Source: a virus (Duplodnaviria; Caudoviricetes). Taken from it: a stretch of DNA of 64,000 nucleotides. The stretch lies in the IMG/VR virus record IMGVR_UViG_3300010279_000001, positions 32,001-96,000 of that record. One strand, given 5' to 3'. Numbering within the stretch: position 1 is the first letter of the stretch; each line of letters begins with the position of its first letter. Of this stretch, positions 7,194 through 22,762 are shown in pieces. The notes beneath the pieces are model-generated. The model saw only the letters and a list, made by a program, of their open reading frames with translations, searched no databases and had not been told where the DNA came from. Both the position numbers and the translations under genes were made by a program.

Positions 7194-7406
7194 TTAAATA
7201 TCAATTTTAAGGCTTCTGTGACGCTCTGTGGCGTCCTTTTTTGTCATCAGGCTACTATTACCTATCCTGAGTAGTCGATTGCGTTACAGAGAGTTTTAGA
7301 GAGTTTCTCCACACAACATTCTTTTCGAGCGTAGCGAGAACGCACGCCCGTTTTGACCCAAACTACTATACGCTCGGATTTTAACCAAACCCTCGCGGCG
7401 TTCCTG

Positions 7407-7435
7407 TTGACACATTCCTCCCCCCGTGATAGTAT
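7407..7435 (+). promoter_or_regulatory. sigma70-type promoter
   Basis: TTGACA-17-TAGTAT with extended TG. Confidence 0.7.
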
Positions 7436-7465
7436 CCACACATAGTTTAAAGAGGAGTGTGCACC

Positions 7466-7552
7466 ATGAAAACATCATCTGAAGTTTTAATCGTAATTCT
7501 GATGATCATTGTCGCTATAGCAGCAGTTGCTGAGATACTTTACACCTTATAG
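7466..7552 (+). CDS. 28-aa membrane peptide
   Basis: GAGGAG RBS; MKTSSEVLIVILMIIVAIAAVAEILYTL. Confidence 0.65.
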   Translation: MKTSSEVLIVILMIIVAIAAVAEILYTL

Positions 7553-7560
7553 AGGTAAAC

Positions 7561-7737
7561 ATGACCAACACATATACACCTAAAGAGCCGGTGAAAGAGG
7601 AAAACTCCAATTCTGAAGGCACTGTGCCGCAATCTCAGGGCGATCCGGAGGCGGCTGACCTCACTTGGGAAGATATTGTAGACATCTGGTTTGCCATTAT
7701 GCCTGAGCACGAAGAGTTTAGAGGTGGCAGACTATGA
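7561..7737 (+). CDS. 58-aa acidic protein
   Basis: GAGGT RBS; manual translation. Confidence 0.6.
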   Translation: MTNTYTPKEPVKEENSNSEGTVPQSQGDPEAADLTWEDIVDIWFAIMPEHEEFRGGRL

Positions 7738-7904
7738 AGCACCGAGCCCACACAAGTTTCTCATGCTAAGGCATGGCCTGAAGAGCCGCCCGAAGGGGTG
7801 ACCTAGTCACCTGGCATAGCCAGCGAAAGAGGCAAACGTATATAAATTCCAGTGTATTGGAGAGTATAAACCCTGTTCACACTTTTATTTCTAAAGGAGA
7901 TTGC

Positions 7905-8126
7905 ATGAAGATAGAAATATTTGGTGGTGCTGACAACACTCGTGGCCTGATTTATCTTGAATTCGATGAATCCTATCTGCCAGAAGTGTTGAATATGAAT
8001 GCTGTGGCTGAGGCTCTGGGAATAAGTCCTAAAGATCTCTACTCTGATGCTGAGATTGATGGTTGGGAAGAGACTATAAACATTGATTTCAGTGAAGTTG
8101 ACTGGATTGACCCCGAAAGCGTTTAG
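7905..8126 (+). CDS. small acidic protein
   Basis: AAGGAG RBS before ATG 7905. Confidence 0.7.
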   Translation: MKIEIFGGADNTRGLIYLEFDESYLPEVLNMNAVAEALGISPKDLYSDAEIDGWEETINIDFSEVDWIDPESV

Positions 8127-8206
8127 CTCCTGAACTAAATTTCCCACCAACAGAATGACTTACCTTCCTCACGTGACTGTTTGCTTGTTTAGTGAGCAGT
8201 CATGCC

Positions 8207-8236
8207 TTGACATTTTCCCACACCTGCTGATAAAAT
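8207..8236 (+). promoter_or_regulatory. sigma70-type promoter firing into the non-coding block
   Basis: TTGACA-18-TAAAAT with extended TG; no credible ORF downstream. Confidence 0.6.
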
Positions 8237-9148
8237 GAAGGCCTTCTCTTTTCTTTTACCGAGTAATTCGGGTTTTCTGTTCTCTTCGGTTTGAAGGGGT
8301 ATGGAGATACACCTGAGTGAACAGGGTGAACAACCGAATCTTTGGCTATGGCATTAGCATGGCGAAGCGAACGGGTGACGAAAGAGGGGCCGGAGGACAC
8401 CAGTCACTGCCATATGATATATGGGTGATAACCTGAAGAGTCTGAATAAGTGTTTAAGTACCAGTCAGAGGAAAAGGTGAATGGTAGCCGAAGGGGGAGG
8501 GGGGTTTCTTGTATCTTTAATTTGTATATTATGTATACACTCGTAAACCAATATCATATGAATCTGTTTACCACACAAAGCGGATAGAGACAAATATTAC
8601 CTATTAAACTTGAATTATTTATAGAAAATACCACAACACCACTTAAGTCTTTGATTTTACACAAAAATCTCACAGATATTCACCCTCCATATTTAACATA
8701 CTTGTAACATATTCCATACTCTACCTATCTGATCAATTTACCCAACCACATCCTTCATATTTTCCCTGTCTGTACCACCCCTGCCCCGCCGGGAGTCCCG
8801 TCACATCTGGCTTTCCTGCAAATATCACATCCACAAATATCATCACCTGAAGAGGGTTTCATCCCATAATACATGCCTTACCTGAAGAGCGCTTCATACA
8901 CCACGTAATTTTTTATTGACCCGCAATTTTTCTGACACATCCCCTCTTGCCCTATAAGAGTTTCACCGGGGGTGAAATCTGCCATGCAGACCCCCTGCCC
9001 CGCCGGAGGGGTTGGCTTTTCCCACACAGACCTGAAGAGTCAGCCAGAAATATCTGAAGGGGTCCGTTCTGCCACGATTTTGACCTGACCTACAGGAGTG
9101 CTTCCCTGTCAGGAGCCTGTAGCGACTGGAGTGCTGCCAGGCGGACGA

Positions 9149-9302
9149 AATGGGAATACTTCTCATTCTTATAATGATTCTCAAATATCGAGGCTGTTTA
9201 CGCGATTGATAGCTCTGACCGTTCACATAGTGGCATGGCTTTTGCAGGATCATTGTGTGGGTGCACCTGATAATTACTCTCATTGTGATAATAGTTCTCA
9301 TT
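9149..9302. promoter_or_regulatory. four Fur-box-like sites in two pairs
   Basis: 9149 AATGGGAATACTTCTCATT, 9167, 9266 CCTGATAATTACTCTCATT, 9284 TGTGATAATAGTTCTCATT versus the 9-1-9 consensus AATGAKAATNATTMTCATT. Confidence 0.65.
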
Positions 9303-9454
9303 ACACGGCATTTAACATAATACCCATTATGCGCACCACTGGCGATCCATACAGGGATTGATAACATGAGTTACAGTTTACGCATATAACAATCATATTT
9401 CTTACTATTTGTGTGGGATATAGTTAGCAGCCGATAGATTAGATATTGACCTGT

Positions 9455-9486
9455 GGACTTCCAACCGTCTAGACGTCTAAACGCCC
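9455..9486. promoter_or_regulatory. MetJ-operator-like array of four in-phase Met boxes
   Basis: GGACTTCC AACCGTCT AGACGTCT AAACGCCC versus consensus AGACGTCT. Confidence 0.6.
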
Positions 9487-9657
9487 ACACAACAAGGATT
9501 ATACATACATTACTGAATGTAAACAGGGCCGCAAAAATGCTACCATACCAGTTTGTAAATTTTTCATGCAGCACTTGACAAAGAGGAGGAAAACTTGTCT
9601 GACACTTTAGACACAATAGTGACATAATGGTGACACTGAACATAATTGACATGCCTG

Positions 9658-9807
9658 ACTGTTTACGCTGTCATTATCCACGCTAGTAATATTCACTCGC
9701 TTACTATTCACGCTCTTACTGTTTACATGCTTAATGGTTTACATGCTTAATAGACTGCATGTCTAATAGTTTACATAGCCAACTGTTCACGCATAGATTG
9801 TTTACTC
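9658..9807. repeat. degenerate tandem array of ten 15-16 bp units, core TRTTYAC
   Basis: Units start at 9658, 9673, 9688, 9703, 9718, 9733, 9749, 9765, 9781 and 9797. Confidence 0.8.
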
Positions 9808-9892
9808 AAAAATGATAAGCCATGCCATTCGTTTGCATGATAAAGATTAGCAAGTTAATAGTCTTTCACTGGCTATGATGACATAATATAAA

Positions 9893-9973
9893 AGCAGGGC
9901 AACTATTAGCAGATCTATAGTTGCCTTGCTTGTCATGTCATGATTGATTGATTATAAGGCAACTATAGATCTG
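9893..9973. repeat. nested inverted repeats of a GGCAACTAT motif
   Basis: 9893-9906/9917-9930 14-bp IR with one mismatch; 9910-9927/9956-9973 perfect 18-bp IR. Confidence 0.8.
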
Positions 9974-10682
9974 ATTAATAGATTGCAGACAAACTATCAC
10001 GGGGGTGATGGTTACTGCTTTTATATTATGTCGCGACTCCGTCGCGCCATGCCATTCGTTTGCATAGTTGCCTTATTGTTACTGATAAAACAATTGCATT
10101 GTTAATTATTTCTTATCTTTCTCTTAGTCATCTAATGATTCCAGTTAGTATAGTAATGTACAGTAAACATTAGACGACTAAAGATTTCTCTGCTTATGAT
10201 AACTTACCGTGACAATTACAGACTGTTTACGAAAAATGTTGACACCTGAGCTGATTTATGTTATGCAGTTTGCACGAATAATTATTTTATGCAGGTATTG
10301 ACTATTCCGTTATTCTACGGTTGGAATAAATACTTAGCATGCTATAGAATGGTGACGCTACGTGAATTCTGAGATTCTGCGGCTATAGTTATACCCGATT
10401 TTTCACGTAGAGCACGCTTTTGCAGTGGTGTAAGTGTATGACTTATAAGGGTTTTTAGTTGTTGACAAGATACTGAAGATGTGCATCAGGTTAAAATTTG
10501 TGCAATAGCGGCATTACGTGCAATTTTGAGAGGAAAAACGGGTAAAAATGGCCTTGCTACCACACAATGAAAGATTATGCAATAGTTATTTTCTATGCAT
10601 ATTTGTACAGTGGGGGTAATTGCTGGCTTGTCGATTATTCCACTTGCCAGGTGGGGCCGTTTGTGGTAGTGGAAGGATAGAC

Positions 10683-10708
10683 AAAAAGAAAGGGGCCTTT
10701 AAGCCCCT
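10683..10708 (-). terminator. intrinsic terminator ending the early region
   Basis: AAGGGGC-ttaaag-GCCCCTT plus U-tract on the - strand. Confidence 0.75.
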
Positions 10709-10728
10709 TGATAGTTTAAGTTAAGAGA

Positions 10729-11148
10729 TTATAATGCTTCATAGATTTCATAGATTCGATTTGCCAGGTCGTTACGGTAACGGAATTTTTCATCACGTTT
10801 GATCATCAGGTCTTTGAAGCCGAACTCTTTCAGCGCTTCATTAACTTTGTGGCGGCTAACCACCATGTTATCCTGAGCGTCACCAATAAACTTGTTGCTA
10901 TGTTGCATTGCTTTAATTTCTTCTTCCAGGACCAGGGCAACTATGCGGACCGGATCAAGCTGATATGCGGTAACATCCATGCGGCATTGTAAACGGCTTT
11001 TAACGTCTGCCACCGGATATACTGCAACCTCTTCCCCGTCAACATTTACAATAACCAGTTTGCCATCAATTTCAAAACCTTTTGCGGCGGGGCCGTGGCA
11101 AAAAGCGTTATCAAAGCTGTATGCAGGATTGTTAGATTTAATGTTCAT
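10729..11148 (-). CDS. early hypothetical protein
   Basis: GAGGT RBS; own promoter at 11195-11223. Confidence 0.8.
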   Translation of the reverse strand: MNIKSNNPAYSFDNAFCHGPAAKGFEIDGKLVIVNVDGEEVAVYPVADVKSRLQCRMDVTAYQLDPVRIVALVLEEEIKAMQHSNKFIGDAQDNMVVSRHKVNEALKEFGFKDLMIKRDEKFRYRNDLANRIYEIYEAL

Positions 11149-11284
11149 GGTGTTTACCTCTTAGTTAATTTTCTTACAACTTCCCTTCAAAAAGAATATA
11201 GCAAAACTGCCGATCCCTGTCAACAAGGGATAGCATAATTTTTGTGTGGGCAATAGGGGCCGTAGCCCCTGGTTGTATCGCCTG

Positions 11285-11548
11285 TTATTTGTTATTCATC
11301 CAGTTTTCCCAAGATGCCTGATACTCGGCCTCACTGCGGCGGATCTCTTCTTGTTCTGCAAGGCGGATCTCTTCTTCCAGGTAGCCTAAGATGTCAGCTT
11401 TTTTGGTCTGGCGTAACATCCAATCGTCCTTTTTGCGAGTAAAGATTTTATATGCTTTCTCACAAACTTCTTTTTTGCTACCTTTCTGTACTTCAAGGAT
11501 ACGGTAGGCCATGTATTGAACTAATTTAAGTTGGTCGATACGTTTCAT
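11285..11548 (-). CDS. early hypothetical protein
   Basis: GAGGA RBS. Confidence 0.8.
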   Translation of the reverse strand: MKRIDQLKLVQYMAYRILEVQKGSKKEVCEKAYKIFTRKKDDWMLRQTKKADILGYLEEEIRLAEQEEIRRSEAEYQASWENWMNNK

Positions 11549-11607
11549 GATGTTTTCCTCTTTTGTGGTCTTGATTAGTGGGCCTTTCGGCCCGTGTCAT
11601 TATCTTA

Positions 11608-11880
11608 TTACTTACGGCGGCAGAATTCAAGGGTTTTTAATTGATAATCTTCCTCGGCCTGGAGTACAACCGCCTCGATCATTTCGTTGGCATTGTTGAA
11701 GCCATAACCTTTAGCGAACTCATCCGCACCACCTTTGTGATCATGTTCTGCGTTCATCGCTTCCACAAAATGGAATTCCAGATTGTTAAGGTATGGGCTT
11801 GATGTTCCGTCCTCTTTTTCGATGAGATCCCAAATAGCGTTAAAACGTGATTCAACTTCTTGATTAATCCAGCTTGCCAT
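11608..11880 (-). CDS. early acidic hypothetical protein
   Basis: GAGGA RBS, leader hairpin, promoter. Confidence 0.8.
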   Translation of the reverse strand: MASWINQEVESRFNAIWDLIEKEDGTSSPYLNNLEFHFVEAMNAEHDHKGGADEFAKGYGFNNANEMIEAVVLQAEEDYQLKTLEFCRRK

Positions 11881-11984
11881 AATATTTTCCTCTCTCCTGG
11901 TTGTTGTGTGGGCACCTTTGCCCCTTCAAAACAAATGTTACCCTACCTCCTGGCAGGTGTCAACGGTTTTTATGGTTTTTATAT

Positions 11985-12033
11985 GGCAGGCAGGCCCGGT
12001 GGTTGTCTCCCCCTGTCGCCAGGTGCCTGCCGT
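11985..12033 (-). ncRNA. putative promoter-driven hairpin RNA, copy 1 (GGGAGACAA family)
   Basis: Starts 7 nt after TG-T-TATACT; GGCAGGC/GCCTGCC stem; similar copies at 21618 and 21772. Confidence 0.5.
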
Positions 12034-12091
12034 AAAACAAGTATAACAAAAAACAGGACCATTGCAAGCCCTGTTTTATAGTTTATAAGGA

Positions 12092-12283
12092 CTATATTTT
12101 TTCGCCTATATAGTCCGGTCTGTTTTTCTCTGTCATGCGCTTAATCAATTCTTGCACAATACATATTGCGGTCAATGTCTCGTCTTCGCGCTTTGAGTCA
12201 ACATAATCAGGATCGTTTATAACTTTTGTCTGATTATGATATCTCAATACTGCCAACACTTTTACAGCTTCATCAGTGGTCAT
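12092..12283 (-). CDS. early hypothetical protein
   Basis: AGGTG RBS. Confidence 0.7.
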   Translation of the reverse strand: MTTDEAVKVLAVLRYHNQTKVINDPDYVDSKREDETLTAICIVQELIKRMTEKNRPDYIGEKI

Positions 12284-12291
12284 TATCGCAC

Positions 12292-12426
12292 CTAAAACAA
12301 TGAGTTAATATAGGACACCAGATCGCTAACAGCCAGAACAATACTGATTAAAACATGTTTCACCATGATGGGCAGCATTGCCAGGGCCGCCAGGATCGCT
12401 ATTGCAATAACTGTATTTTTCATCAT
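12292..12426 (-). CDS. 44-aa membrane peptide
   Basis: Manual translation MMKNTVIAIAILAALAMLPIMVKHVLISIVLAV... Confidence 0.55.
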   Translation of the reverse strand: MMKNTVIAIAILAALAMLPIMVKHVLISIVLAVSDLVSYINSLF

Positions 12427-12428
12427 AT

Positions 12429-12710
12429 CTAGCGGCTTACATAGGTTTTACTATTTACAGTCATGGGGATGACTTTAAGATCTGGATCTTCTTGAAGGTC
12501 GCGGACTATTTCGCCGCACCGTGGGCCTTCATATCCTTGATACTCTGTTTCACCGTTTGCGTGATGGATAACAGCCAGGCACATCTTATAATTTACACCT
12601 ATGCTATTAACAGCCTTGATATCGACGAAGTCTATAGCTTTCGGCAATTCTTTTGCTGCCATGGAACAGGTGGAAGTTAAAAGGGCAATAATTGCAATCA
12701 TCTTTTTCAT
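12429..12710 (-). CDS. secreted/periplasmic hypothetical protein
   Basis: Signal peptide MKKMIAIIALLTSTCSMA; GAGGA RBS. Confidence 0.75.
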   Translation of the reverse strand: MKKMIAIIALLTSTCSMAAKELPKAIDFVDIKAVNSIGVNYKMCLAVIHHANGETEYQGYEGPRCGEIVRDLQEDPDLKVIPMTVNSKTYVSR

Positions 12711-12759
12711 GGTGTCTATCCTCTTTCTATTGCGGGGGCGTTACCACTTCGTTTATGGT

Positions 12760-12996
12760 TTATTGATTGATGTTATAATGAAAGTTATTTTCTTCAATAA
12801 CTTTTAAAATAAAAGCCGTGATCGCTTTCGTGTCTACTTGTTCGAACGTATCGGAATAGCACCAATAATGATCATCCCCTACTTTCGGCGGGTAAACCTG
12901 GACAAGGAGATCGCCACCTGGTTGATCTATAATCTCAACATGCAAGCCGGATGATTCAGCGGTTTTAACGGCGGTTAATACTGTTGCAATACTCAT
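12760..12996 (-). CDS. early hypothetical protein
   Basis: AAGGA RBS. Confidence 0.75.
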   Translation of the reverse strand: MSIATVLTAVKTAESSGLHVEIIDQPGGDLLVQVYPPKVGDDHYWCYSDTFEQVDTKAITAFILKVIEENNFHYNINQ

Positions 12997-13076
12997 AATC
13001 TTTTCCTTTCCGATGTGGGGGCGTTGCCTTATTGCCCCGCCCTACGAAATACATTCTATCAGATAACAAATTATCG

Positions 13077-13223
13077 TTAAGATTTATTTTTTACTTCCCA
13101 AACGGAAAATTCACTACCTATCGGGAGCATTCTTTTAATCTTGTTTGCTGCCGCTACCAGATCCACGGCTTGCACTGTAATAATATAACCAATTGTCGAG
13201 GCTGTTGCGTTGAAAGTTTTCAT
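13077..13223 (-). CDS. early hypothetical protein
   Basis: GAGGA RBS before ATG 13223. Confidence 0.7.
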   Translation of the reverse strand: MKTFNATASTIGYIITVQAVDLVAAANKIKRMLPIGSEFSVWEVKNKS

Positions 13224-13294
13224 TATATTATCCTCTAATCCAGGCCGCCCTACGTGATACATCTTACACTATTTGAAAATGTTGTCAAACTATT

Positions 13295-13474
13295 TTAACG
13301 ATAATCATCATATGCTTTATTTACCTGGCGAATATAACATTCAAAAGCCAGATCAATAGATTCATATTCACGGATATATTCACCATAGGAAACCACGTAC
13401 ATCTTTATAGCTTCCTCATATACTAGGAGAATAGAATCTAACCCTACGATCTCAGTCTTTGCAATAATAGCCAT
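13295..13474 (-). CDS. 59-aa early hypothetical protein
   Basis: GAGGA RBS; manual translation MAIIAKTEIVG... Confidence 0.7.
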   Translation of the reverse strand: MAIIAKTEIVGLDSILLVYEEAIKMYVVSYGEYIREYESIDLAFECYIRQVNKAYDDYR

Positions 13475-13549
13475 GATTTTTATCCTCTTTGTGGTTGGCG
13501 GGGCTTGTTGCCCCCTTTGATTTATATATTACAGTTTTATATGGTCATG

Positions 13550-13783
13550 TCAACTATTTTCAAAAAATTTTTCTGCTGTGATATTTTTCCCGGTAGGGTT
13601 CGCTACTTTCAAAATTCTATCATGCACCGGACGCCCGAAAGAATAAGATCCGTATACAGTAAACCAATAATCACCGTCAGGCTGTACTATTACCGCCGCA
13701 TATGGTACGCCTTTTTCGTTATTGCTCACAAAATAGATCACATTGCCATTAATAGCCTCAGCGCGTTTAATTTGTTCCATCAT
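13550..13783 (-). CDS. early hypothetical protein
   Basis: GAGGT RBS. Confidence 0.75.
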   Translation of the reverse strand: MMEQIKRAEAINGNVIYFVSNNEKGVPYAAVIVQPDGDYWFTVYGSYSFGRPVHDRILKVANPTGKNITAEKFFENS

Positions 13784-13845
13784 GATAATTTACCTCTTTT
13801 TATTTTCATAATCTCAGGTTAGGGGCCTTATCGGCCCCTCCAGGC

Positions 13846-14130
13846 TTATTTATTGATAGCGTGCAGCGGGAAAGGTACGCCAGGTTGATAAATAACTTTT
13901 ACAACCTCATCAGGGCAAAAGAAGTTGCAGAACTCACCCCGATAAGCTTCCTCTTCTTTCAATTCGTCATCAACATACTCGAAAAAATAATCTACGCTTG
14001 GATAGTCCTGCCCTGGGTTGTAGTCAACCATTGTAAGCACCAGTTCAAGATCATTGCGGATGATATGCATACCCGCTTTTAAATATTTTGCTTCCATTTT
14101 TACTACATCGCCAGCGGTAACAATAGCCAT
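13846..14130 (-). CDS. early hypothetical protein
   Basis: AGGAG RBS. Confidence 0.8.
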   Translation of the reverse strand: MAIVTAGDVVKMEAKYLKAGMHIIRNDLELVLTMVDYNPGQDYPSVDYFFEYVDDELKEEEAYRGEFCNFFCPDEVVKVIYQPGVPFPLHAINK

Positions 14131-14334
14131 GGTTTTAACTCCTGTTCAGGTTAATGATTGATTGGAGGCATCACCTCCTGACAACTCCTATTATCCACAT
14201 TGTCAGGCTTGATGCAAGCAATTATTTAAAAAATTTTTAAGCGCCCTGGAGGCTGTTGTAACGCCAAAATAATAAAGGCTATGCAATCGCATAGCCAATA
14301 GGTGATTATGTTGCTGTAGGCCCTGCCAGGGGCC

Positions 14335-14685
14335 TTATTTTGCATTCTTGCCTGTATTGCCGCCACGGTACCAGCGTTTACGGTGAAAATGGTAATAATC
14401 TCCATCAGCATTGAACATCAGATGATTTTCAATAACCAGTTTACGAAGGTGGGCCGGATCTTGTTCCATTCTTGCCAGATTCCGGCGGCTGTTACGTAAG
14501 CGGATAAACTCCATATTCAGGCCGTTGATCGCAGTATGGATGTCAAAGTAACCACCTTTAAGACGTTCACGCATGGCGTTAAGTTCGGAACTGTATACAG
14601 ATTTTTCACAAATCAGGGCATTAGCCAGGGCGCGGACCTTGGCAAGGGGGTTAAGCTCATTAAGGTAATATAGTTTAACTTTCAT
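14335..14685 (-). CDS. early hypothetical protein
   Basis: AGGTG RBS. Confidence 0.75.
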   Translation of the reverse strand: MKVKLYYLNELNPLAKVRALANALICEKSVYSSELNAMRERLKGGYFDIHTAINGLNMEFIRLRNSRRNLARMEQDPAHLRKLVIENHLMFNADGDYYHFHRKRWYRGGNTGKNAK

Positions 14686-14702
14686 AAAATCACCTGCTGA
14701 AA

Positions 14703-15008
14703 TTAGTTTGAGAAAACATCGTTCACAATAGCTATAACAATGCCGTTCACCTTGTCACGGTCAACAATACACAAATCACCATAAATCATGTGGTAGTCTG
14801 GATGATCTTTGACAGAGTAGTCAATCAATGTTTTCTTATCGTCCAGCTTTTTAACTTCCATGGTCATTGTGATGAATTGCTCGTTAAAAGCGCTATTGCG
14901 GAAGACCATCACTTGACCGCCTTGACATCCAGTGATCTCCACTTCCACGCCGTCTACGATCTGACCATCAAAGAAATAAAGATTATTGGCAGGTATAAAC
15001 ATAATCAT
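14703..15008 (-). CDS. early hypothetical protein
   Basis: AAGGAG RBS. Confidence 0.8.
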   Translation of the reverse strand: MIMFIPANNLYFFDGQIVDGVEVEITGCQGGQVMVFRNSAFNEQFITMTMEVKKLDDKKTLIDYSVKDHPDYHMIYGDLCIVDRDKVNGIVIAIVNDVFSN

Positions 15009-15045
15009 TGCTCCTTTCGGTACTGATTATTTAACAGGGTTTAAA

Positions 15046-15089
15046 TTTACTTTATTGATGGCCCTGGTGTCAAGGCCATCTAAAAATAA
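15046..15089. repeat. 44-bp long-stem hairpin repeat, copy 1 (RNase III-site-like)
   Basis: Identical to 19333-19376; variant at 19965-20010. Confidence 0.85.
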
Positions 15090-15091
15090 AT

Positions 15092-15292
15092 TTATAAGCC
15101 TACAATCTCTTTGATTCGTCTAACTGCTGCCTCAGCGCCTTGAGGATAGAAATTATGGTAACCAATCACGCGAGTGATACTAATAGCCGCTTGATGATCT
15201 TCATAATCGCCTTTGAAGATTTCTTGACCATCAACCAGAACAGCCAGTTTTTCATCTTTTTTGAAGTTGATAACGCGGATATTCTTGCTCAT
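15092..15292 (-). CDS. early hypothetical protein
   Basis: AAGGAG RBS before ATG 15292. Confidence 0.8.
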   Translation of the reverse strand: MSKNIRVINFKKDEKLAVLVDGQEIFKGDYEDHQAAISITRVIGYHNFYPQGAEAAVRRIKEIVGL

Positions 15293-15435
15293 TTTTCTTT
15301 CTCCTTTCCAGGTCTTTGTTTGTGTAGTGGGGATGTCTCCCCGTTGATTGTTATTATCCACATTGCGGACCGGATTGCAACATTCTGGAAGAAAAATTTT
15401 TGAAAAAGTTAAGCCCCCATGATCGGGGGCCGTTA

Positions 15436-15558
15436 TCAGTTACTTACAGCTATAAAGTACATTCCCACGCCTAGCAATATTTCAAGGGCGATGATCTCCA
15501 GCCATACTATAACATGTTGCACCTTGCCGCCAGGCTTAGGCTTATCCTTGGTTGTCAT
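15436..15558 (-). CDS. 40-aa membrane peptide
   Basis: GGGAG RBS; MTTKDKPKPGGKVQHVIVWLEIIALEILLGVGMYFIAVSN. Confidence 0.6.
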   Translation of the reverse strand: MTTKDKPKPGGKVQHVIVWLEIIALEILLGVGMYFIAVSN

Positions 15559-15667
15559 CGTCTCCCCCTTTCATTTTGTTGGTGATGACGTGATTTGCAA
15601 TGGCCCCCAGGAGGCCTATCACTACGCACATTGCGAGAAAAATTATTTCTACCGTTGTTCGATCCAT
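15542..15667 (-). CDS. small membrane peptide
   Basis: GAGGA RBS; MDRTTVEIIFLAMCVVIGLLGAIA... Confidence 0.6.
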   Translation of the reverse strand: MDRTTVEIIFLAMCVVIGLLGAIANHVITNKMKGGDDDNQG

Positions 15668-15789
15668 TGTTATAAAATTCCTCAAGGTCAGGTTTGAAAA
15701 TAAACTCTTCGGTGTCGAATCCATCACGCCAGGCGGCTGGCTTCAGATCTTTACTAAAGGGATTAATTAGCGCGGCATTGTTGAGACGG

Positions 15790-16149
15790 TTAGCCCACAT
15801 ATTTTCTATTTCTCTCAAATAAGCGATCCGCTTCAGTTAAACATATTTCATGGGCCTGATCTCTGGTTTTAGCCTCATCAAAAACTTGTTGTGCCAGGCT
15901 GCAGCGCAAGGAGACTGGAAGATCGCTATAATAGGCATTAACAAAAGTTTGTGCGTCATACAAGTCTGAAAATACTTTACCCTTTCTATTATTGCCATTG
16001 TCAACAATTGCAAGGATGACCAGTATAATAGTTGCAACCACTCCCAGGAAAATAGATATAACAAACCATAAGAAAGCTGACCTGCCTATCTTGCCAGCGA
16101 TCCAGGCGTTAAACAAGGCAACTAATACAGCTAAAATAATAAATTCCAT
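15790..16149 (-). CDS. two-TM membrane protein
   Basis: GAGGT RBS; two hydrophobic helices. Confidence 0.75.
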   Translation of the reverse strand: MEFIILAVLVALFNAWIAGKIGRSAFLWFVISIFLGVVATIILVILAIVDNGNNRKGKVFSDLYDAQTFVNAYYSDLPVSLRCSLAQQVFDEAKTRDQAHEICLTEADRLFERNRKYVG

Positions 16150-16213
16150 TCTATGTACCTCTCTTACATTTCTACTTAACAATAAGGCGGCAAATATGCC
16201 GCCTGTTGCCTGG

Positions 16214-16594
16214 TTAAAAGTTATCGCCGTAAATTTTACCGCTTTCTACCCATACCACAACACGCGGCATATTATCCCATACATCTTGTTTTAGATTGAG
16301 GGAGTGCAATTCTTCGGTGGTGCTCATACCTGGCACGGGTTGATTGTATACTGCAAAACGACCGCCTGCATAATCATAAGCCAGAGTTAAATCACACTGG
16401 ATCATCTTTTTGATCATGGCGTTAAGCATAGCGGTAGCCGCATGCTGGTCACGTTTTAAAGGTAACGCTTTAATCAGTTTGCGATAGTTTTCGATATGGT
16501 CGCACACTGTTTCACGTGGAAGATCTTTCATATCTTCACGGAAGGTAACCAGGTTAAACATAACAGTGTCAATAGCTTTCGCGGTGTTTTTCAT
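16214..16594 (-). CDS. early hypothetical protein
   Basis: GAGGA RBS, leader hairpin, promoter. Confidence 0.8.
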   Translation of the reverse strand: MKNTAKAIDTVMFNLVTFREDMKDLPRETVCDHIENYRKLIKALPLKRDQHAATAMLNAMIKKMIQCDLTLAYDYAGGRFAVYNQPVPGMSTTEELHSLNLKQDVWDNMPRVVVWVESGKIYGDNF

Positions 16595-16684
16595 AATGTT
16601 ATCCTCTTCGTTTTGTGTGGGGGCAAACGTCTTGCCCCCTTGAGTTTTAATATAGCACGTTTTTAGATTATTGCAACACTTTAC

Positions 16685-17308
16685 TTATGAAAAACTCATC
16701 TCGCCAGATTCATCGACATCAAACCGCCAGTCGTTGGCCTGGATGAGGCCGATCAAGTTCTCTGCCGTGAACTGTTCAAGATATGCCTCTTCAAGGCTTG
16801 CGTAAACCTTGCAAGATAGCTCCCGCACCGTCTCGGTGATCAACTCTTCCAGCTCTTCCACTTTGTCTTCTTGTTTGGCGGTCAGATCCAGCCAGGTAGC
16901 ATCAATATACCCGTTGATAGTATTTTCGTGACTATAGCGGCTGTATGCGTCACGTTCAACACTGGCTGATAGCTCGCCATCATGCATTGTTCCGAACAAG
17001 TGACGGATTGAGCGGAACTTAGTCAGCGCCTTGACTTTACGCAGGAATTTTTCCAGATCTACATTTTCAGCGCTAATTGATGCACCGTCGCCCTGACACC
17101 AAAAGCCGGACCAATGTACTTCAGTATCTTCAAGGCCATACTCTGGAAAAACATATTCTTTATAGTATTCAATTACACTTTCTGCGAAAAAGTTATCACC
17201 GCTATTTTCTTCCCTTTCGCGGACCATTTCAACGGCTTTTTCTTTTTGTTCGTCGGTCAGCACGTCGAAAGATAAATTGTAACCTGCAGTAATGTTAACG
17301 GTAGTCAT
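16685..17308 (-). CDS. acidic hypothetical protein (SGFWxQGDGA family, often annotated antitoxin-like on mobile elements)
   Basis: F..L.DE.KEKA and WSGFWCQGDGAS motifs recalled from MGE proteins; function uncertain. Confidence 0.6.
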   Translation of the reverse strand: MTTVNITAGYNLSFDVLTDEQKEKAVEMVREREENSGDNFFAESVIEYYKEYVFPEYGLEDTEVHWSGFWCQGDGASISAENVDLEKFLRKVKALTKFRSIRHLFGTMHDGELSASVERDAYSRYSHENTINGYIDATWLDLTAKQEDKVEELEELITETVRELSCKVYASLEEAYLEQFTAENLIGLIQANDWRFDVDESGEMSFS

Positions 17309-17384
17309 GATATTTTCTCCTGTTTTCTTTTAAGTGGTGGCGGGAATTGTTCCCACCTATGTGGTTAAGTATACTTGTTTAATC

Positions 17385-17645
17385 TTACTTGTCAACACTA
17401 TTTTTTAAATTATTGTGGCGTAAAAAGTTCAAGATCTCTTCAACATTGTCAACACGGCGGCAATTTTTGAACGCTACCAATTGCCCCAGGATTTTAATCA
17501 CCGGGCGGCCCTGGCAGTAGCCTTGAAGAAAGCGCGCCTTAACTTTATCGGTGGAACTATCACGCCACCAAACCGCTTTATTGTTGCAGTAGTAAAAATT
17601 ATTCAGGACTACATCAACTTTATCAAAATTTTTTAATTTACGCAT
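17385..17645 (-). CDS. early basic hypothetical protein
   Basis: AAGGAG RBS. Confidence 0.75.
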   Translation of the reverse strand: MRKLKNFDKVDVVLNNFYYCNNKAVWWRDSSTDKVKARFLQGYCQGRPVIKILGQLVAFKNCRRVDNVEEILNFLRHNNLKNSVDK

Positions 17646-17709
17646 GGTGTTTACTCCTTCTCTCGTTTAGATGCGGTTAGTATACCCTGGCTATTCCAGA
17701 TGTCAAGCC

Positions 17710-17880
17710 TTAAATTAAATCACTGTCAAAATAAACTGCTTCATTTTCATCAATGATCTCAATCTTTTTCTTTCCTAGCTCTAGGACCATGTACCAGGCT
17801 TGATCCTGAGCGGCGTTGAGATTATCATACCATGCAATATTAACGCCTTTTTCTGTTACGTAAAACATTTTATTTTCCAT
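17710..17880 (-). CDS. 56-aa hypothetical protein
   Basis: GGGGA RBS; manual translation MENKMFYVTEKG... Confidence 0.65.
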   Translation of the reverse strand: MENKMFYVTEKGVNIAWYDNLNAAQDQAWYMVLELGKKKIEIIDENEAVYFDSDLI

Positions 17881-17891
17881 AATGTTTCCCC

Positions 17892-17990
17892 TTATTTGGA
17901 ATTGCTAATGATAAAGCCTGCAAGCAAACAACCTATAACAAAACATAGGCCGCACATTATTAGTGGATTTTTAATCAGCTCGGTTAGCAT
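17892..17990 (-). CDS. 32-aa membrane peptide
   Basis: MLTELIKNPLIMCGLCFVIGCLLAGFIISNSK. Confidence 0.55.
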   Translation of the reverse strand: MLTELIKNPLIMCGLCFVIGCLLAGFIISNSK

Positions 17991-17995
17991 TTTAT

Positions 17996-18226
17996 TTACG
18001 CTTCCAATGTCATGATCTCGAACCTGGCTATAATAATCCCTACATCCACAAAGCATACAGGATCAACCATCTGGTTACATATAACCAGATGATCATCTTC
18101 CTCGTCGATGTACCAGTCATTATTGGCCTGTATTTCGTCCAGGTCATAGTAATGGCCTGCTTTGTATTTGCATTGTGCCTTGTAGTTAGAAAAATCGCAA
18201 TAGACCATGTTTTTTGTCTCCTGCAC
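17996..18226 (-). CDS. small hypothetical protein
   Basis: ORF; start uncertain. Confidence 0.65.
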   Translation of the reverse strand: MQETKNMVYCDFSNYKAQCKYKAGHYYDLDEIQANNDWYIDEEDDHLVICNQMVDPVCFVDVGIIIARFEIMTLEA

Positions 18227-18432
18227 CTTTCCCTTTCTTTAAATGCATCATGCTATAAAGTGTTATCCTTGTCAATGATATTTTTAACGCCATAAAACGG
18301 CCCTAGACGATGTTTTCAGGTTAAGGAAGGTGATTGCATAGGTGGGGGCGTTTATGGCTGTTGTAGGGCCAACCGGGGGCGCTATTTGAGGATAGAAATA
18401 AAAAGCCCCGCCATTGTGCGGGGCTATGGTTG

Positions 18433-18630
18433 TTATTCTTCTTTGTGTCGGTATCTTTCTGCCTGGCGTTCACGTTCAAGAAGCAAACCAGGTAACTTAC
18501 GGTCGTAATGGTTGCGCCATAGCTTGCCAAATCTTTTTGGTTTGTTTAGCTTGTTGTTACGCTGGCGGCGTTCCGGCAACTCTTCGGAATCATGGGAACG
18601 CTTTACAATTTTTTCGAAATTAATTTTCAT
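18433..18630 (-). CDS. T7 gp1.1-like small basic protein
   Basis: NFEK..KRS...KLNK.KR resembles T7 gp1.1 as recalled. Confidence 0.55.
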   Translation of the reverse strand: MKINFEKIVKRSHDSEELPERRQRNNKLNKPKRFGKLWRNHYDRKLPGLLLERERQAERYRHKEE

Positions 18631-18973
18631 AAATTCCCCCTTTGCTAATTTCAATATTTGCCTGAATCGCCCGGATACGACGTTTTATGACCTCCTGATC
18701 CTTGCAATCATATCCCCAAAAGTCTACGATCTTTGCGCCTCCGGCCTCTAGGCGATATAGTGTTTCTTGCATTTTGTAAGCGGGGATCGGTCGCGGTGTT
18801 ACCTGGTCGCCCTCCTTATTCTTATATTTGATAATATAATCTTCGTTATCGTTGAATACCCAAAATGGATATTCTGCAATAGTATTATTTTCTTTTTCGT
18901 TTTTAGATTGGATCTTATTTACAATTAATGCTGTTGCAATAGCTCCGATGATAAAACTTGCCCCACTAATCAT
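18620..18973 (-). CDS. membrane-anchored hypothetical protein
   Basis: AAGGAG RBS; N-terminal TM segment. Confidence 0.7.
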   Translation of the reverse strand: MISGASFIIGAIATALIVNKIQSKNEKENNTIAEYPFWVFNDNEDYIIKYKNKEGDQVTPRPIPAYKMQETLYRLEAGGAKIVDFWGYDCKDQEVIKRRIRAIQANIEISKGGIYEN

Positions 18974-19049
18974 AGTTCTTTCTCCTTTCATTGTGTTAAT
19001 AAATTATCTTTATAGATGGCCCTGTTACCAGGACCACCGAAAAAACAAT

Positions 19050-19295
19050 TTATTTCACAATCCCCACAAAACAGATCCCACCTTCACCAACATAAGCAAT
19101 ATCGGTAACTTTGTAATTGGTTAAGATTTGTTTATTCAGCTCATTAATAAAATCATCCATAGCTGCGGTGTAGTTGTCTTCCATATCCAAGGCATAATCC
19201 CAGGTATAAACCTTTTTACGTCCGAACCCTTTTACCATGATGCGGGCGCTTTTGGTGTTGGTCGGTGCATAGTGTTTGGTGATTAATGCTGCCAT
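19050..19295 (-). CDS. phage hypothetical protein (ITK...PTN...ARI motif)
   Basis: AAGGAG RBS. Confidence 0.8.
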   Translation of the reverse strand: MAALITKHYAPTNTKSARIMVKGFGRKKVYTWDYALDMEDNYTAAMDDFINELNKQILTNYKVTDIAYVGEGGICFVGIVK

Positions 19296-19332
19296 GATTT
19301 TAACTCCTTTGTAAGTGTTAACAGTTTTTTAG

Positions 19333-19376
19333 TTTACTTTATTGATGGCCCTGGTGTCAAGGCCATCTAAAAATAA
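19333..19376. repeat. 44-bp hairpin repeat, copy 2
   Basis: Identical to 15046-15089. Confidence 0.85.
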
Positions 19377-19378
19377 GC

Positions 19379-19729
19379 TTACTCGTTTTCTTCCAGCTCT
19401 GTAAGCTCTTCTTTCACTTCTTCAAGCTCTGCCTGCAATTCTTGATAGTCTTCATCGTCTTCAATATCCAAGCTATCAATATAATCGCTAAATCCGCAAC
19501 GGTAAGCGATAGGATCTAACTCACTAAGGATACGTGACGGAGAGAAAGAGATACAGCCGATCATAATTTCACCGTGGATCTCATCCAACCATTCATCATA
19601 TTTTTCGTCGTATTTGTCCTCGTCGATCTCGAAATTATCGATCTTGTCTTCAAGTTCTGCGATCTGTTTTTTCAGAGCAGCGATCTGCATAGCTTTTTCT
19701 GCGTCAGTCATAGTGATCGTGGTATTCAT
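19379..19729 (-). CDS. highly acidic early protein, DNA-mimic candidate
   Basis: About 37 D/E versus 9 K/R in 116 aa (manual count); AAGGAG RBS. Confidence 0.75.
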   Translation of the reverse strand: MNTTITMTDAEKAMQIAALKKQIAELEDKIDNFEIDEDKYDEKYDEWLDEIHGEIMIGCISFSPSRILSELDPIAYRCGFSDYIDSLDIEDDEDYQELQAELEEVKEELTELEENE

Positions 19730-19808
19730 AATGTTTTCTCCTTTTATGTGCTCTGGGATGTACTCCCGTTTACGTGTTTAAGTATACTGATTTAAGTTAG
19801 CTTGTCAA

Positions 19809-19925
19809 TTAAAAGTTTAAGAAAAATTTTGCAAAACTGTTAGCACTACTCATCAACATTCCCGCCAGGATATAACTAACAATGCAAGCAATTACAGTTA
19901 TTTTTGTATAACTATGTTTACTCAT
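19809..19925 (-). CDS. 38-aa membrane peptide
   Basis: GGGGAG RBS; MSKHSYTKITVIACIVSYILAGMLM... Confidence 0.55.
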   Translation of the reverse strand: MSKHSYTKITVIACIVSYILAGMLMSSANSFAKFFLNF

Positions 19926-19964
19926 CTTATATACTCCCCTTTTTGTAGTATTCTCTATATCTAA

Positions 19965-20010
19965 TTTATTTTATTTGATGGCCCTGGTTATCAAGGCCAT
20001 CTAAAAATAA
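19965..20010. repeat. hairpin repeat, copy 3 (variant loop)
   Basis: GATGGCCCTGGTTATCAAGGCCATCTAAAAATAA. Confidence 0.8.
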
Positions 20011-20012
20011 AC

Positions 20013-20399
20013 TCAGTAATTTTTCAACACTTTCCCGTCCAGTCTGTCAAGCTGGATCTCAATAGCTGCGGAGAATCTATTATACACCACGTCGCCCATG
20101 GAGTCCAACCAATCTATAATATTATATACTTGCTCCTTGTTCTTGCAAGTACGTATCCGTTTCATAACGTATGCCGGATCAATATTGTTACTTCCGTGTT
20201 TATGGTCTTGCGCCAGGCTTGCAATAGCTTTCACCACCACTTGAAAGGGCTTCAAGGTGCCTTTTGCGTTCATCTCACGCGCTTTTGCGGCGCGGTTGTT
20301 ATAGGTTACGATACGGCGGCAAATATTGACTAAATGCATGTCAATAATTTTTTCATCGTTTGCCAGCTCATTCATGATGCGACGGATATTTTTGTTCAT
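20013..20399 (-). CDS. early hypothetical protein
   Basis: AGGAG RBS, leader hairpin, promoter. Confidence 0.8.
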   Translation of the reverse strand: MNKNIRRIMNELANDEKIIDMHLVNICRRIVTYNNRAAKAREMNAKGTLKPFQVVVKAIASLAQDHKHGSNNIDPAYVMKRIRTCKNKEQVYNIIDWLDSMGDVVYNRFSAAIEIQLDRLDGKVLKNY

Positions 20400-20486
20400 A
20401 GTGTTTTCTCCTAGTTGTGTTGGCGGGAATGTTTCCCGCCTTTGATATCTAGTCTACTTAAATTTTGCGGCGTGTCAAACTATTTT

Positions 20487-20885
20487 TTATTCGTGGGCGC
20501 ATGTCACAATGTGCTTTTTATACCCCAGGTGGGCAGCAAGTGCTGACAAAAATTCTTCCTCATAGATCCAGCCGTTGGCAGTGATCCCCATAGCATTTAA
20601 TGCGCTTTCAAGTGCTGCGTTGGCCTTATCATAACCGTGTCCGCTGGCCTTGCCGCCAGTATAACCGTACTTATTGTTCTTGCTGTCGTGCATCCAAAAG
20701 ACGCAATAATGAGTGTTACCGCTAGAGGCGGCATAATACCGGATCTCGGCTACTTCGTGTAAATTATTATCATCGTCCAGGCCAACCAGATTATAAGCCT
20801 TGTAAAATCCACGATCACGGCGGCAGTTCTTGACATCAGAAAAAGAGAAGTCGGCATTGTCAAAATTAAAGGTTGTGGTTTTCAT
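20487..20885 (-). CDS. phage hypothetical protein (ASG.GYDK motif)
   Basis: GAGGA RBS. Confidence 0.8.
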   Translation of the reverse strand: MKTTTFNFDNADFSFSDVKNCRRDRGFYKAYNLVGLDDDNNLHEVAEIRYYAASSGNTHYCVFWMHDSKNNKYGYTGGKASGHGYDKANAALESALNAMGITANGWIYEEEFLSALAAHLGYKKHIVTCAHE

Positions 20886-20949
20886 GATTTTATCCTCTTA
20901 GTGTCTTTTGTGATTTCAGTATATTTTGTGTCGGGGAGTATGTCAATAC

Positions 20950-21147
20950 TTATTTTTTATTAAACCAGTGATTGATCTGACCTTTTGTCAGGGCGCAACG
21001 ATTAAGCTGTTGCAGGGTATAGCTATGACCGCGACGAAATTTATAAAGGCCTTGCCCGTTGTTGATGGTTACGTCTACCTGGCAAACCATTTGATCGGTG
21101 ACCACCTGGCGAGCGTTGCGACGTGCTTTGATTCCGTATACGTTCAT
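20950..21147 (-). CDS. early basic hypothetical protein
   Basis: GAGGA RBS before ATG 21147. Confidence 0.7.
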   Translation of the reverse strand: MNVYGIKARRNARQVVTDQMVCQVDVTINNGQGLYKFRRGHSYTLQQLNRCALTKGQINHWFNKK

Positions 21148-21228
21148 AATGTTTTCCTCTTTGCTAGTTAGTGCGGCGTTGTTCACCTTGTAGGGAAAGA
21201 ATACCAGGATTAACCAGGTTGTCAATAA

Positions 21229-21399
21229 CTATTTCAAATTATTTTTAGGGTAGAATTCACCAGCGGCAGCACCTGCAGCCTCAACCATCATTTTTTCATA
21301 GTCCAACCAGTTGACCAGGGCATCACGCGCCGCTTTCTCACGTCTTGCATCGATATCTTTACTGTTCACTACGATATCTTTTTTATCTTTACCTTTCAT
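21229..21399 (-). CDS. early hypothetical protein
   Basis: GGAGG RBS before ATG 21399. Confidence 0.65.
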   Translation of the reverse strand: MKGKDKKDIVVNSKDIDARREKAARDALVNWLDYEKMMVEAAGAAAGEFYPKNNLK

Positions 21400-21573
21400 T
21401 TTATTTTCCTCCCCTTGTTGGGTATCTCTTCTTCCTGATTCTTTTATACTACTCCCCAGGGCCTGGCGCAACCATTTTATAACTTTCCTCCCTGGTCCGG
21501 TCGGACATACCAGGCTGGCCCCGCCAGGCTGCAGCGGTTGGCGCACCTGGTTAGAAAATTTTTTGAAAAAGTG

Positions 21574-21665
21574 TTGACAGCGGCCCCGCCAGGTGGCATA
21601 ATGCACTCATCGAAAGGACGGCAGGCACCGGTGACGGGGGAGACAACCACCGGGGATGGGCGCTA
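21574..21665 (+). ncRNA. promoter TTGACA-17-CATAAT plus putative hairpin RNA, copy 2
   Basis: CCGGTG/CACCGG stem with loop ACGGGGGAGACAAC; no ORF. Confidence 0.5.
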
Positions 21666-21670
21666 TATAA

Positions 21671-21854
21671 AATGAGAACGGTTATCATTATCGTCTAAAA
21701 ATTTATGCGAAAAATCCTTGCTTTCTTTGTCCTGCGTGATACTATAATAACAAGCCGGGGCAACAGGGGCCGGGAGACAAACACCGGGCCTGCCCGTTAT
21801 TTAGCAAACGAGAATGATTATCATTCAAAATTCTAAATGAGAACTCCTCGCATT
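21671..21854. promoter_or_regulatory. three Fur-box-like sites
   Basis: 21671 AATGAGAACGGTTATCATT (16/18), 21807 AACGAGAATGATTATCATT (17/18), 21836 (14/18). Confidence 0.7.
21718..21800 (+). ncRNA. promoter TTGCTT-16-TACTAT plus putative hairpin RNA, copy 3
   Basis: GGGAGACAAACACCGGGCCTGCC is 22/23 identical to copy 1. Confidence 0.45.
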
Positions 21855-21896
21855 TACTAAATTTAATTAGCATGCTAATTACCTACCGTGACAATT

Positions 21897-22120
21897 CTAC
21901 ATAAAATAATACTCCATAAAATATTTCCATATAGAAATTTTGAAAATCTATTTCCGAAAACGAAAAATCGATTTCGTTCCCAAAAATTTCAGATCGATCG
22001 CCAGACCAATTTCCAGAAAATCCGATTCAGAAAACGAAAAACAGATCGAGTACTGAAAATTTATCGAGACAGATTTCTACAAAATCGGATAGCCAGAACG
22101 AAAAACAGATCGAGTACCGG
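21897..22120. repeat. phased A-tract region with a 21-bp direct repeat
   Basis: AACGAAAAACAGATCGAGTAC at 22033-22053 and 22097-22117. Confidence 0.75.
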
Positions 22121-22429
22121 GGAAGCTGTGCCGAAACTTGTCGATGGCAGTAAGCTTGTTGTGGTAAAGGTGCAAGGTTAAGCCAGATAAGCACAGGTGG
22201 AGGAGGGTATATGTACGATAGGTGCAAGAAGATGATTTAAAGGAACAGTGCTAACGAGTGGAGGATTAGGTAGGCGTGTACCTCTTGTGTGGGAAAAATC
22301 CATTTTAGTTTTCGATCCATTTTCTGATTTTCTAAGAATCTTGAAATATCTGGGCAGGTAAAATATCAAAAGGAGGAAATCCATTTTAGAAATCCTCCCG
22401 GTCTCTGGCAACCTACTAACTTAAAAATA

Positions 22430-22762
22430 TCAGGTTCCCAGTGTGTTCTTTCCTTTGTACAACCGTAAGGGTATAGTTTTTGTAACAGTCCATCTCCCCA
22501 CACCTTCCCAGTTCCAGTTGTAGGTATGGTACCCAGTTATGCATGCACTGCTAGAGTGGTCATAGGCATAAGAGAACGCTATACGCACCAAATGGAACCA
22601 GTCTTTCCACGGTTGTGGTCCGTAAGCTTTTCTCCAACACCGACACAAACTAAATGTCTCAAGAATAGGCAGGATAACAAATCCATACACAGCCACCAGA
22701 ATGGTCAACGCAATGATTGTCAGGAATACATACCCTGCAGTTGAAATGATGATCTCTGTCAT
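22430..22762 (-). CDS. membrane protein
   Basis: GGAGG RBS; N-terminal TM segment. Confidence 0.75.
   Translation of the reverse strand: MTEIIISTAGYVFLTIIALTILVAVYGFVILPILETFSLCRCWRKAYGPQPWKDWFHLVRIAFSYAYDHSSSACITGYHTYNWNWEGVGRWTVTKTIPLRLYKGKNTLGT

Follow-up and report, generated by a model that had tools for sequence, protein, structure and literature searches.

Putative host Fur operator arrays bracket the leftward early genes of an rV5-like coliphage

INTRODUCTION

In the enterobacteria, Fur operators have been described both as a 19-bp sequence, GATAATGATAATCATTATC, and as a 7-1-7 unit, TGATAATnATTATCA. Here we describe seven boxes with the same dyad, and with the same 6-bp register of overlapping sites, in the DNA of an rV5-like (Vequintavirus) Escherichia coli phage. 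The DNA that we analysed (the window) is a stretch of 64,000 nucleotides covering positions 32,001 to 96,000 of the IMG/VR virus record IMGVR_UViG_3300010279_000001, and the boxes stand in two blocks of the window that are poor in open reading frames (ORFs), on either side of the leftward early genes. They differ from the enterobacterial operators in lying on a virulent phage, in an ORF-free chromosome end and an internal promoter island, and in their regular 29-bp spacing. Unlike host Fur operators they are also off the −35 and −10 elements of any iron-uptake gene, and the binding of Fur to them is a prediction.

Three described systems come closest to this arrangement. In the Fur titration assay (FURTA), multicopy operators can derepress Fur-regulated genes. 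Such operator decoys likewise consist of many copies of a repressor's operator, carried by an element that replicates and controlling no gene of its own, although they need no conserved position or spacing and the phage arrays have both. The T7-type short direct terminal repeats and the cos site of phage lambda likewise place the chromosome ends in gene-free DNA with sites for host proteins near the cut. Lambda cos uses IHF, whereas here the host factor would be Fur and the second cluster of sites sits 12.5 kb from any end.

The third system is phage T5, where the untranslated region has been described as the site of the injection-stop signal and DnaA has been proposed as the host factor; Fur is never mentioned in that account (Davison, bioRxiv 10.1101/866236). 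The T5 injection-stop region and the promoter island of the present phage both lie at the inner border of the leftward earliest genes, 7–9% from the left end. T5 Repeat Region 3 and the island are also alike in being ORF-free, repeat-rich and strongly conserved amid varying genes. The two phages differ in that T5 has terminal repeats of 8–10 kb with pre-early genes, paired DnaA boxes and A1/A2, whereas the terminal repeat predicted here is 0.46 kb long.

Fur-type boxes are confined to two ORF-poor blocks

The genome has a length of 137,418 bp, which is the basis of all genome-wide motif counts given below, and both blocks match more than 100 Vequintavirus records at 85–92% identity. The plus-strand genes stop at ∼8150 (positions are those of the window throughout) and the minus-strand early genes span 21399 down to 10729, with the two ORF-poor blocks flanking them. 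A PHROG search with the ORFs inside both blocks gave 0 family matches, while the neighbouring 56-aa gene at 21229–21399 does match a PHROG family. A coding reading of the longest block ORF (8963–9367, minus strand, 134 aa) was rejected, its frame being broken in relatives. The first-pass annotation of this DNA, made from the letters alone, had called the blocks gene-free, and effectively they are; the right block, which it ended at 21.9 kb, actually extends from ∼21400 to 22400.

That annotation had also proposed that the blocks share an inventory of sites for several host transcription factors and bracket the early region with them. Each of its motifs was found in its place, and the bracketing holds, with the left cluster in the terminal repeat and the right cluster 12.5 kb inside. 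Of the inventory, only the Fur boxes proved to be truly common to both blocks. Seven sites fit the 7-1-7 form of the enterobacterial Fur operator, TGAKAATnATTMTCA:

9149–9167 and 9167–9185: Fur-type boxes 1 and 2, with two mismatches each to the phage 19-mer or the 7-1-7 core
9266–9284 and 9284–9302: Fur-type boxes 3 and 4, 18 bp apart, matching the E. coli consensus at 14/19
21671–21689: Fur-type box 5, with the genome-best match to the E. coli 19-mer (16/19 at 21674)
21807–21825 and 21836–21854: Fur-type boxes 6 and 7, 29 bp apart

The relatives suggested a phage consensus, AATGAGAATNATTCTCATT, which contains the same 7-1-7 unit. With four mismatches or fewer allowed (≤4), it was found at seven sites genome-wide, and six of the seven are the boxes starting at 9149, 9266, 9284, 21671, 21807 and 21836. 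These six top sites occupy ∼0.4 kb of the 137-kb genome. The remaining box, at 9167, was picked up by the 7-1-7 core and not by the AATGAGAATNATTCTCATT scan. For the E. coli 19-mer, the score next to that of box 5 among the genome-best was 15/19, at 21810. The claim of four Fur-like boxes on the left and three on the right is thus confirmed at a level far above chance.

Conservation was followed in alignments of 10 relatives for the left block and six for the right block, at 85–90% identity. Boxes 1 and 2, which begin 10 bp from the predicted left end of the chromosome, are near-invariant in 11 phages. Boxes 3 and 4 retain both a Fur-like score of 13–14/19 and the 6-bp register in 11 relatives despite substitutions, and box 5 reaches 17/19 in one relative. 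The box consensus is a dyad; both orientations retain it, as do boxes that differ from one another in sequence, and the flanks of the boxes have no information content.

The boxes resemble E. coli Fur operators

We compared the boxes with the operators of the host by scanning E. coli K-12 with the phage pattern AATGAKAATNATTMTCATT. This gave 51 sites, compared with seven for the reversed control. Matches checked against the annotation lie in the −10 region of ryhB and at gpmA, fhuF (two sites), fhuA, fepD–entS and fepB–entC. Judged by their sequence, the boxes are indistinguishable from genuine Fur operators of E. coli. A phage-encoded protein of the Fur family (PF01475) was sought in this genome and none was found.

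The left block is predicted to hold the physical genome ends

The left cluster of boxes lies in a region that we place, by homology with annotated records, at the ends of the phage chromosome:

8151–9139: ORF-free unique DNA beside the right-end copy of the terminal repeat; no PHROG matches for its nominal ORFs
9140–9599: predicted direct terminal repeat (DTR) of ∼460 bp, with the left end at 9140

Several GenBank relatives begin exactly at window position 9140 and one, in reverse, at 9599. The record of phage Gotham has identical 459-bp repeat_regions at both ends, which map to 9140–9599, and PhageTerm together with a doubling of coverage demonstrated a 514-bp DTR in KPP-1, of the same subfamily (PMC9862379). 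A repeat of 514 bp is also annotated in phage DP, which has boxes at 398, 546, 853 and 911. From these matches we infer that the left block is the terminal region of a linear chromosome, with 8151–9139 as the right arm, then the DTR, and 9600–10728 as the left arm. The block would then be gene-free and repeat-rich because it holds the genome ends and the ∼460-bp DTR, its terminal location alone being a sufficient explanation. In the rV5 genome paper, the left block is drawn as a box marked "non-coding" and the genome is taken as circularly permuted (PMC3606486).

The record does have a 124-bp repeat at its own ends, but this is an assembly overlap from a different region, and is the source of the record's 'direct terminal repeat' flag. 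The predicted physical termini lie ∼41 kb into the record, outside that contig-end overlap. Of the seven boxes, four fall in the predicted terminal repeat and three in the island, which is 12.5 kb inward of the predicted left end, or 9.1% of the genome.

The boxes stand beside promoters with no ORF

The surroundings of the boxes contain a number of promoter-like elements that lead into no ORF. Those nearest to the boxes, together with the tract that closes the right island, are as follows:

9317–9345, minus strand: ORF-less sigma-70-type promoter in the DTR, TCGCCA-17-TATTAT, predicted to fire across boxes 4 to 1 in the direction of the left end
21574–21602, plus strand: right-island promoter P1, followed by no ORF, TTGACA-17-CATAAT with TG, 11/12; conserved
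21719–21800, plus strand: promoter P2 (−10 at 21743–21748) and a 5′ hairpin with a GAGACAAACACC loop; a module found in six genera
21867–21896, plus strand: TTAGCATGCTAA palindrome and 13-mer, forming the weak promoter P3 (−35 TTAGCA, 17 bp, −10 GACAAT)
21930–22120: AT-rich tract containing four GATC sites and direct repeats of the ACGAAAAACAGATCGAGTAC type; part of the conserved island 21510–22120

Boxes 4 and 3 fall at ∼+8 to +45 of the conserved DTR promoter, and boxes 5–7 are located between P1, P2 and P3. It had been noted at first that none of the motifs sits over the promoter of a protein gene. This holds, although the left boxes are just downstream of the conserved ORF-less promoter at 9345–9317 (minus strand). 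A 28-nt block covering the −10 element of that promoter, at 9309–9336, is 89% conserved in CR9, phiTE and LNA4. At the position of P3, relatives in other genera carry TTGACT or TTGACA promoters.

The right block can be described as an internal island of sigma-70 promoters that lead into no ORF, with a 5′ hairpin after each. Three promoter-proximal hairpins (21618–21660, 21755–21800 and, on the minus strand, 11975–12040) have the common loop GAGACAA(A/C)CACC. In single-sequence folds, the outer stems have different sequences in each genus. Conservation of the element in six genera with such divergent outer stems suggests a structured 5′ RNA element; no consensus emerged when RNAalifold was applied to these hairpins as aligned by MAFFT. 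The density of GATC in the tract at 21930–22120 is only slightly raised. Three tandem promoters without an ORF precede this tract, a layout that recalls transcription-activated phage replication origins.

The two-cluster layout recurs in other genera

A 75-nt segment of the right island that contains a hairpin and boxes (21779–21854) was found by blastn in Mydovirus, Seunavirus, Certrevirus and Phapecoctavirus. We scanned five genomes from five other genera, ukendt, KpS8, CR9, phiTE and LNA4, and found four to eight boxes per genome, compared with none for the reversed control. In each case the boxes form two ORF-poor clusters 10–12 kb apart, often with the 29-bp spacing.

In one of these, cluster A, the module is constant: a promoter is followed by the hairpin with the GAGACAAACACC loop, then by the boxes and then by the next promoter. 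In CR9, a gene annotated 'DNA binding protein' adjoins this cluster. The other, cluster B, is homologous to the terminal repeat of the present phage, and the 28-nt block over the −10 of the minus-strand promoter is common to both. In Mydovirus, cluster B straddles the mapped terminal repeat.

The same box forms arrays in a T5-like phage

The exact box is frequent among viral contigs, one of which is the T5-like phage DT571/2. All of its boxes are in the two terminal repeats, at 231, 5464 and 6969–7581, and a scan of its ∼90 kb of unique DNA found no boxes. The region 6969–7581 includes a tandem array of ∼24 bp whose core is the centre of the Fur box, beside two DnaA boxes. The ORFs taken to be pre-early in DT571/2, which were named dmp, A1 and A2 by size and order only, face the left end, as do the early genes of the present phage.

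The island at 21510–22120 has some features of a T5-type boundary. It is conserved and ORF-free, it stands at the inner border of leftward genes, and it has a core in common with DT571/2. The first-pass annotation had pointed to the T5 injection-stop region as a parallel, and this gains support from T5-like phages, in whose terminal repeat the same boxes make up the tandem repeats of the untranslated end.

As a separate observation, the ∼24-bp repeats between 7200 and 7600 of DT571/2 have the sequence CTTAAATGAGAATCATTYCACTT, and the two DnaA boxes that they adjoin in the untranslated end of the terminal repeat read TGTGGATAA.

Other motifs of the proposed inventory

The remaining motifs fared differently from the Fur boxes. 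Two further arrays are located in the left block:

9447–9486: Met-box-like array of five tandem 8-bp units, matching at 5, 5, 6, 8 and 5 of 8 positions, with a perfect AGACGTCT at 9471
9656–9810: tandem array with a 15–16-bp period, just inside the left arm; Tandem Repeats Finder rows 9690–9776

The Met-box array scores 24/32. No other match in the genome is as good, and none of 30 Markov shuffles reached this value (shuffle maxima 19.6 ± 0.7). The array scores 23–25/32 in 11 Vequintavirus sequences and is absent in the five other genera. A scan of E. coli for two consensus Met boxes gave one match compared with three for the control, and is hence silent on specificity. Of the MetJ-like operator first proposed, the tandem, in-register boxes stand above shuffled sequence, but they are restricted to the genus.

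The sequence TTAGCAWGYTAW occurs only at 9847, 10334 and 21867 in the whole genome, and the 13-mer TACCGTGACAATT only at 10205 and 21884. In 6–10 relatives, substitutions or deletions affect these TTAGCA-containing sites and each of the two 13-mers, whereas the adjoining DNA is invariant. They had been read as motifs shared for a function, a reading that their lack of conservation among relatives does not bear out, and by sequence they appear to be unconserved promoter-like DNA. The 13-mer in particular was considered as a functional element and rejected: that both blocks have it exactly looks significant when this genome is taken alone (∼0.04–0.1 expected), yet neither copy is conserved.

A single IHF site, at 8644, is not enriched and is at the level of chance, so the IHF consensus to which meaning had been given loses it. 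There is likewise one DnaA box, at 9674, compared with two expected. The 'MarR-like' and 'Pho-like' repeats correspond to the 15–16-bp tandem array, which shows large copy-number indels between close relatives, and they are not retained as operators.

What binds the boxes, and to what effect

Sequence comparison establishes the motif, its confinement to two places, its dyad symmetry, its equivalence to E. coli Fur operators and its layout, with sites in the first kilobase from the left end and again 7–9% inside, in Vequintavirinae, Phapecoctavirus and T5-like phages. Arrays of putative host Fur operators are, on this evidence, what the two blocks truly share, bracketing the leftward early genes, and host Fur probably binds them. 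We put a probability of roughly 0.6 on the overall explanation that a terminal region and a promoter island carry Fur arrays with the role of a boundary or roadblock.

In such a mechanism, host Fe2+-Fur would bind the arrays on infecting and replicating DNA. The bound Fur would most likely serve as a boundary, or as a roadblock or insulator, for non-coding transcription, gating those ORF-less promoters whose direction is out of the early segment, leftward for the DTR promoter and rightward for P1–P3. The arrays may also mark the first-entering segment, like the T5 repeat region. The titration of Fur from host genes would be incidental to this, and not what selection has maintained.

Several observations weigh against this explanation. 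Position 4 of the core favours G (TGAGAAT) over the textbook T by ∼2:1, and the information-content profile is partly circular, the sites having been selected by their match to the consensus. The usual position of a Fur operator is over a promoter, and no box covers the −35 or −10 of a protein-gene promoter. Within the genus all of 21510–22120 is conserved, and the right boxes are no more conserved than the spacers. The DTR of this particular genome is placed by homology at 88% identity, and the role of boundary or roadblock is drawn from analogy. Homologues of T5 A1 and A2 were sought in this genome and none were found; nor were any pairs of DnaA boxes, the one DnaA-like box comparing with two expected. 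The terminal repeat, at 0.46 kb, is also far from the 8–10 kb of T5.

An unlikely but serious alternative is that the boxes are bound by a dimeric protein encoded by the phage, such as a terminase accessory, an end-binding factor or an early regulator, and that the likeness to Fur operators is convergent or incidental. This would fit the start of the boxes 10 bp from the predicted packaging cut site, the preference for G and C at positions 4 and 12 of the core, in which the boxes depart from the textbook consensus, the location of the boxes off protein-gene promoters, and the 'DNA binding protein' gene beside cluster A in CR9. However, the motif retrieves classic E. coli Fur operators with little background, and several of these also have GAGAAT half-sites. 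The same motif is moreover present across rV5-like, phAPEC8-like and T5-like phages whose early proteins are otherwise unrelated, for which a shared host protein is the simpler explanation, and the phage has no gene of the Fur family. It is improbable that the boxes act as a sponge, with 7–11 boxes per genome titrating Fur as genomes accumulate and thereby derepressing host iron uptake or RyhB. The presence of several high-grade sites per genome, multiplied by copy number and away from protein-gene promoters, is what such a sponge would require, but a decoy needs neither a fixed placement (at the terminus and 7–9% inside) nor a 29-bp spacing beside promoters. The same arrays are present in T5-like phages, which destroy the DNA of the host within minutes (Davison, bioRxiv 10.1101/866236), and the derepression of host genes therefore cannot be a shared purpose; a role in common with T5 would make titration the less likely function. 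Titration would also peak late in infection, when new outer-membrane transporters hardly help. We favour a positional role over titration because of the conserved position and spacing, the degradation of host DNA by T5 and this late peak.

The landing pad first envisaged, in which the blocks recruit Fur, MetJ, SlyA/MarR, PhoB and IHF via the shared inventory, is very improbable. The Met-box array at 9447–9486 is statistically exceptional and is kept within the genus, but the five other genera, which retain the Fur boxes, lack it; neither the TTAGCA sites nor the 13-mer show conservation, the IHF and DnaA sites are at or under chance expectation, and the 15–16-bp array varies in copy number. 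We find it hardly credible that the boxes act as RNA or peptide, whether as small RNAs from P1/P2 or as mini-ORFs whose products start with MRT(V/I)II, or that they are chance AT-rich sequence. Several boxes can be read as ATG AGA ACN NTT ATC in one frame, and the boxes are 60–150 nt downstream of ORF-less promoters. Against this, the consensus dyad is kept in both orientations in boxes of differing sequence, the frames of the 'MRTxII' mini-ORFs break in relatives, there is no match to an Rfam family, and the reversed-pattern controls gave 0 matches in the five genomes from other genera.

The preferred explanation, with Fur arrays at the terminus and in the island, can be extended to a strategy common to rV5-, phAPEC8- and T5-like phages, an extension that we regard as speculative and doubtful. 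Fur on an array at the leading end and on a second array 7–9% inside would define the first-entering early segment, giving a two-step delivery or expression tuned by host iron, and Fur would be the missing stop factor of T5. In that strategy Fur might pause the transfer of DNA, or might bridge the arrays into a closed, supercoilable and transcription-insulated loop. We know of no two-step DNA transfer in rV5-like phages.

Sites for host regulators on the DNA of virulent phages are rarely so consistently placed, here only where the chromosome ends and where the early genes have their inner border, and the arrangement recurs in three phage groups with few early proteins in common. In the literature that could be searched, we found no account of Fur sites for either the Vequintavirinae or T5. 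If Fur does bind, large virulent coliphages would either sense the iron state of the host or use an abundant repressor as a structural boundary factor, and the 50-year-old question of why T5 DNA stops at 8% would gain a concrete, deletable candidate. The rV5-like phages are used for typing and for gut therapy, where iron is limiting.

Further features of the two blocks

Two other elements of the left block lead into no ORF:

8207–8236, plus strand: strong ORF-less promoter, TTGACA-18-TAAAAT with TG
9890–10022, plus strand: long near-perfect inverted repeat and terminator-like hairpin, with no ORF; invariant in 11 phages

The ∼300 nt that follow the first of these (8240–8540) are almost invariant in 11 phages that differ by ∼10% elsewhere. 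For 8243–8545, the predicted RNA structure is no better than that of shuffles (z = −0.8) and there is no ORF family. The conservation of 8207–8540 possibly reflects a packaging or end-processing signal. The inverted repeat has a minimum free energy of −65.5 kcal/mol (z = −11), with arms at ∼9898–9933 and 9955–9990 and the terminator at 9992–10013. The element lies ∼300 bp into the left arm and might function as a small RNA or form a cruciform in the DNA. Two exact copies of the 19-mer CCATGCCATTCGTTTGCAT are located in the same arm (9820–9838 and 10047–10065), and both are invariant in all 11 aligned phages.

A second motif that is truly shared by both blocks is GCCCCGCC(A/G)G. It has four copies in the 64-kb window (8783, 8997, 21518 and 21583), all on the plus strand and all inside the two blocks, with one copy in the P1 spacer and one in a terminator-like hairpin. 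The sequence ACCTGAAGAG also has four copies in the window (8431, 8845, 8880 and 9030), all of them in the non-coding part of the right arm that borders the terminal repeat.

A scan for tRNA genes found none. A scan of 7800–22600 against Rfam at E ≤ 1 gave two weak matches, both within early genes and far under the thresholds. GC skew in this phage reflects gene orientation only, and it tracks gene orientation in the rV5 paper too (PMC3606486).

The genes that flank the right island (21200–21500 and 22120–22280) are replaced or strongly diverged between close relatives. Amid these varying flanks the island is >95% identical, and it acts like a fixed point between variable gene cassettes.

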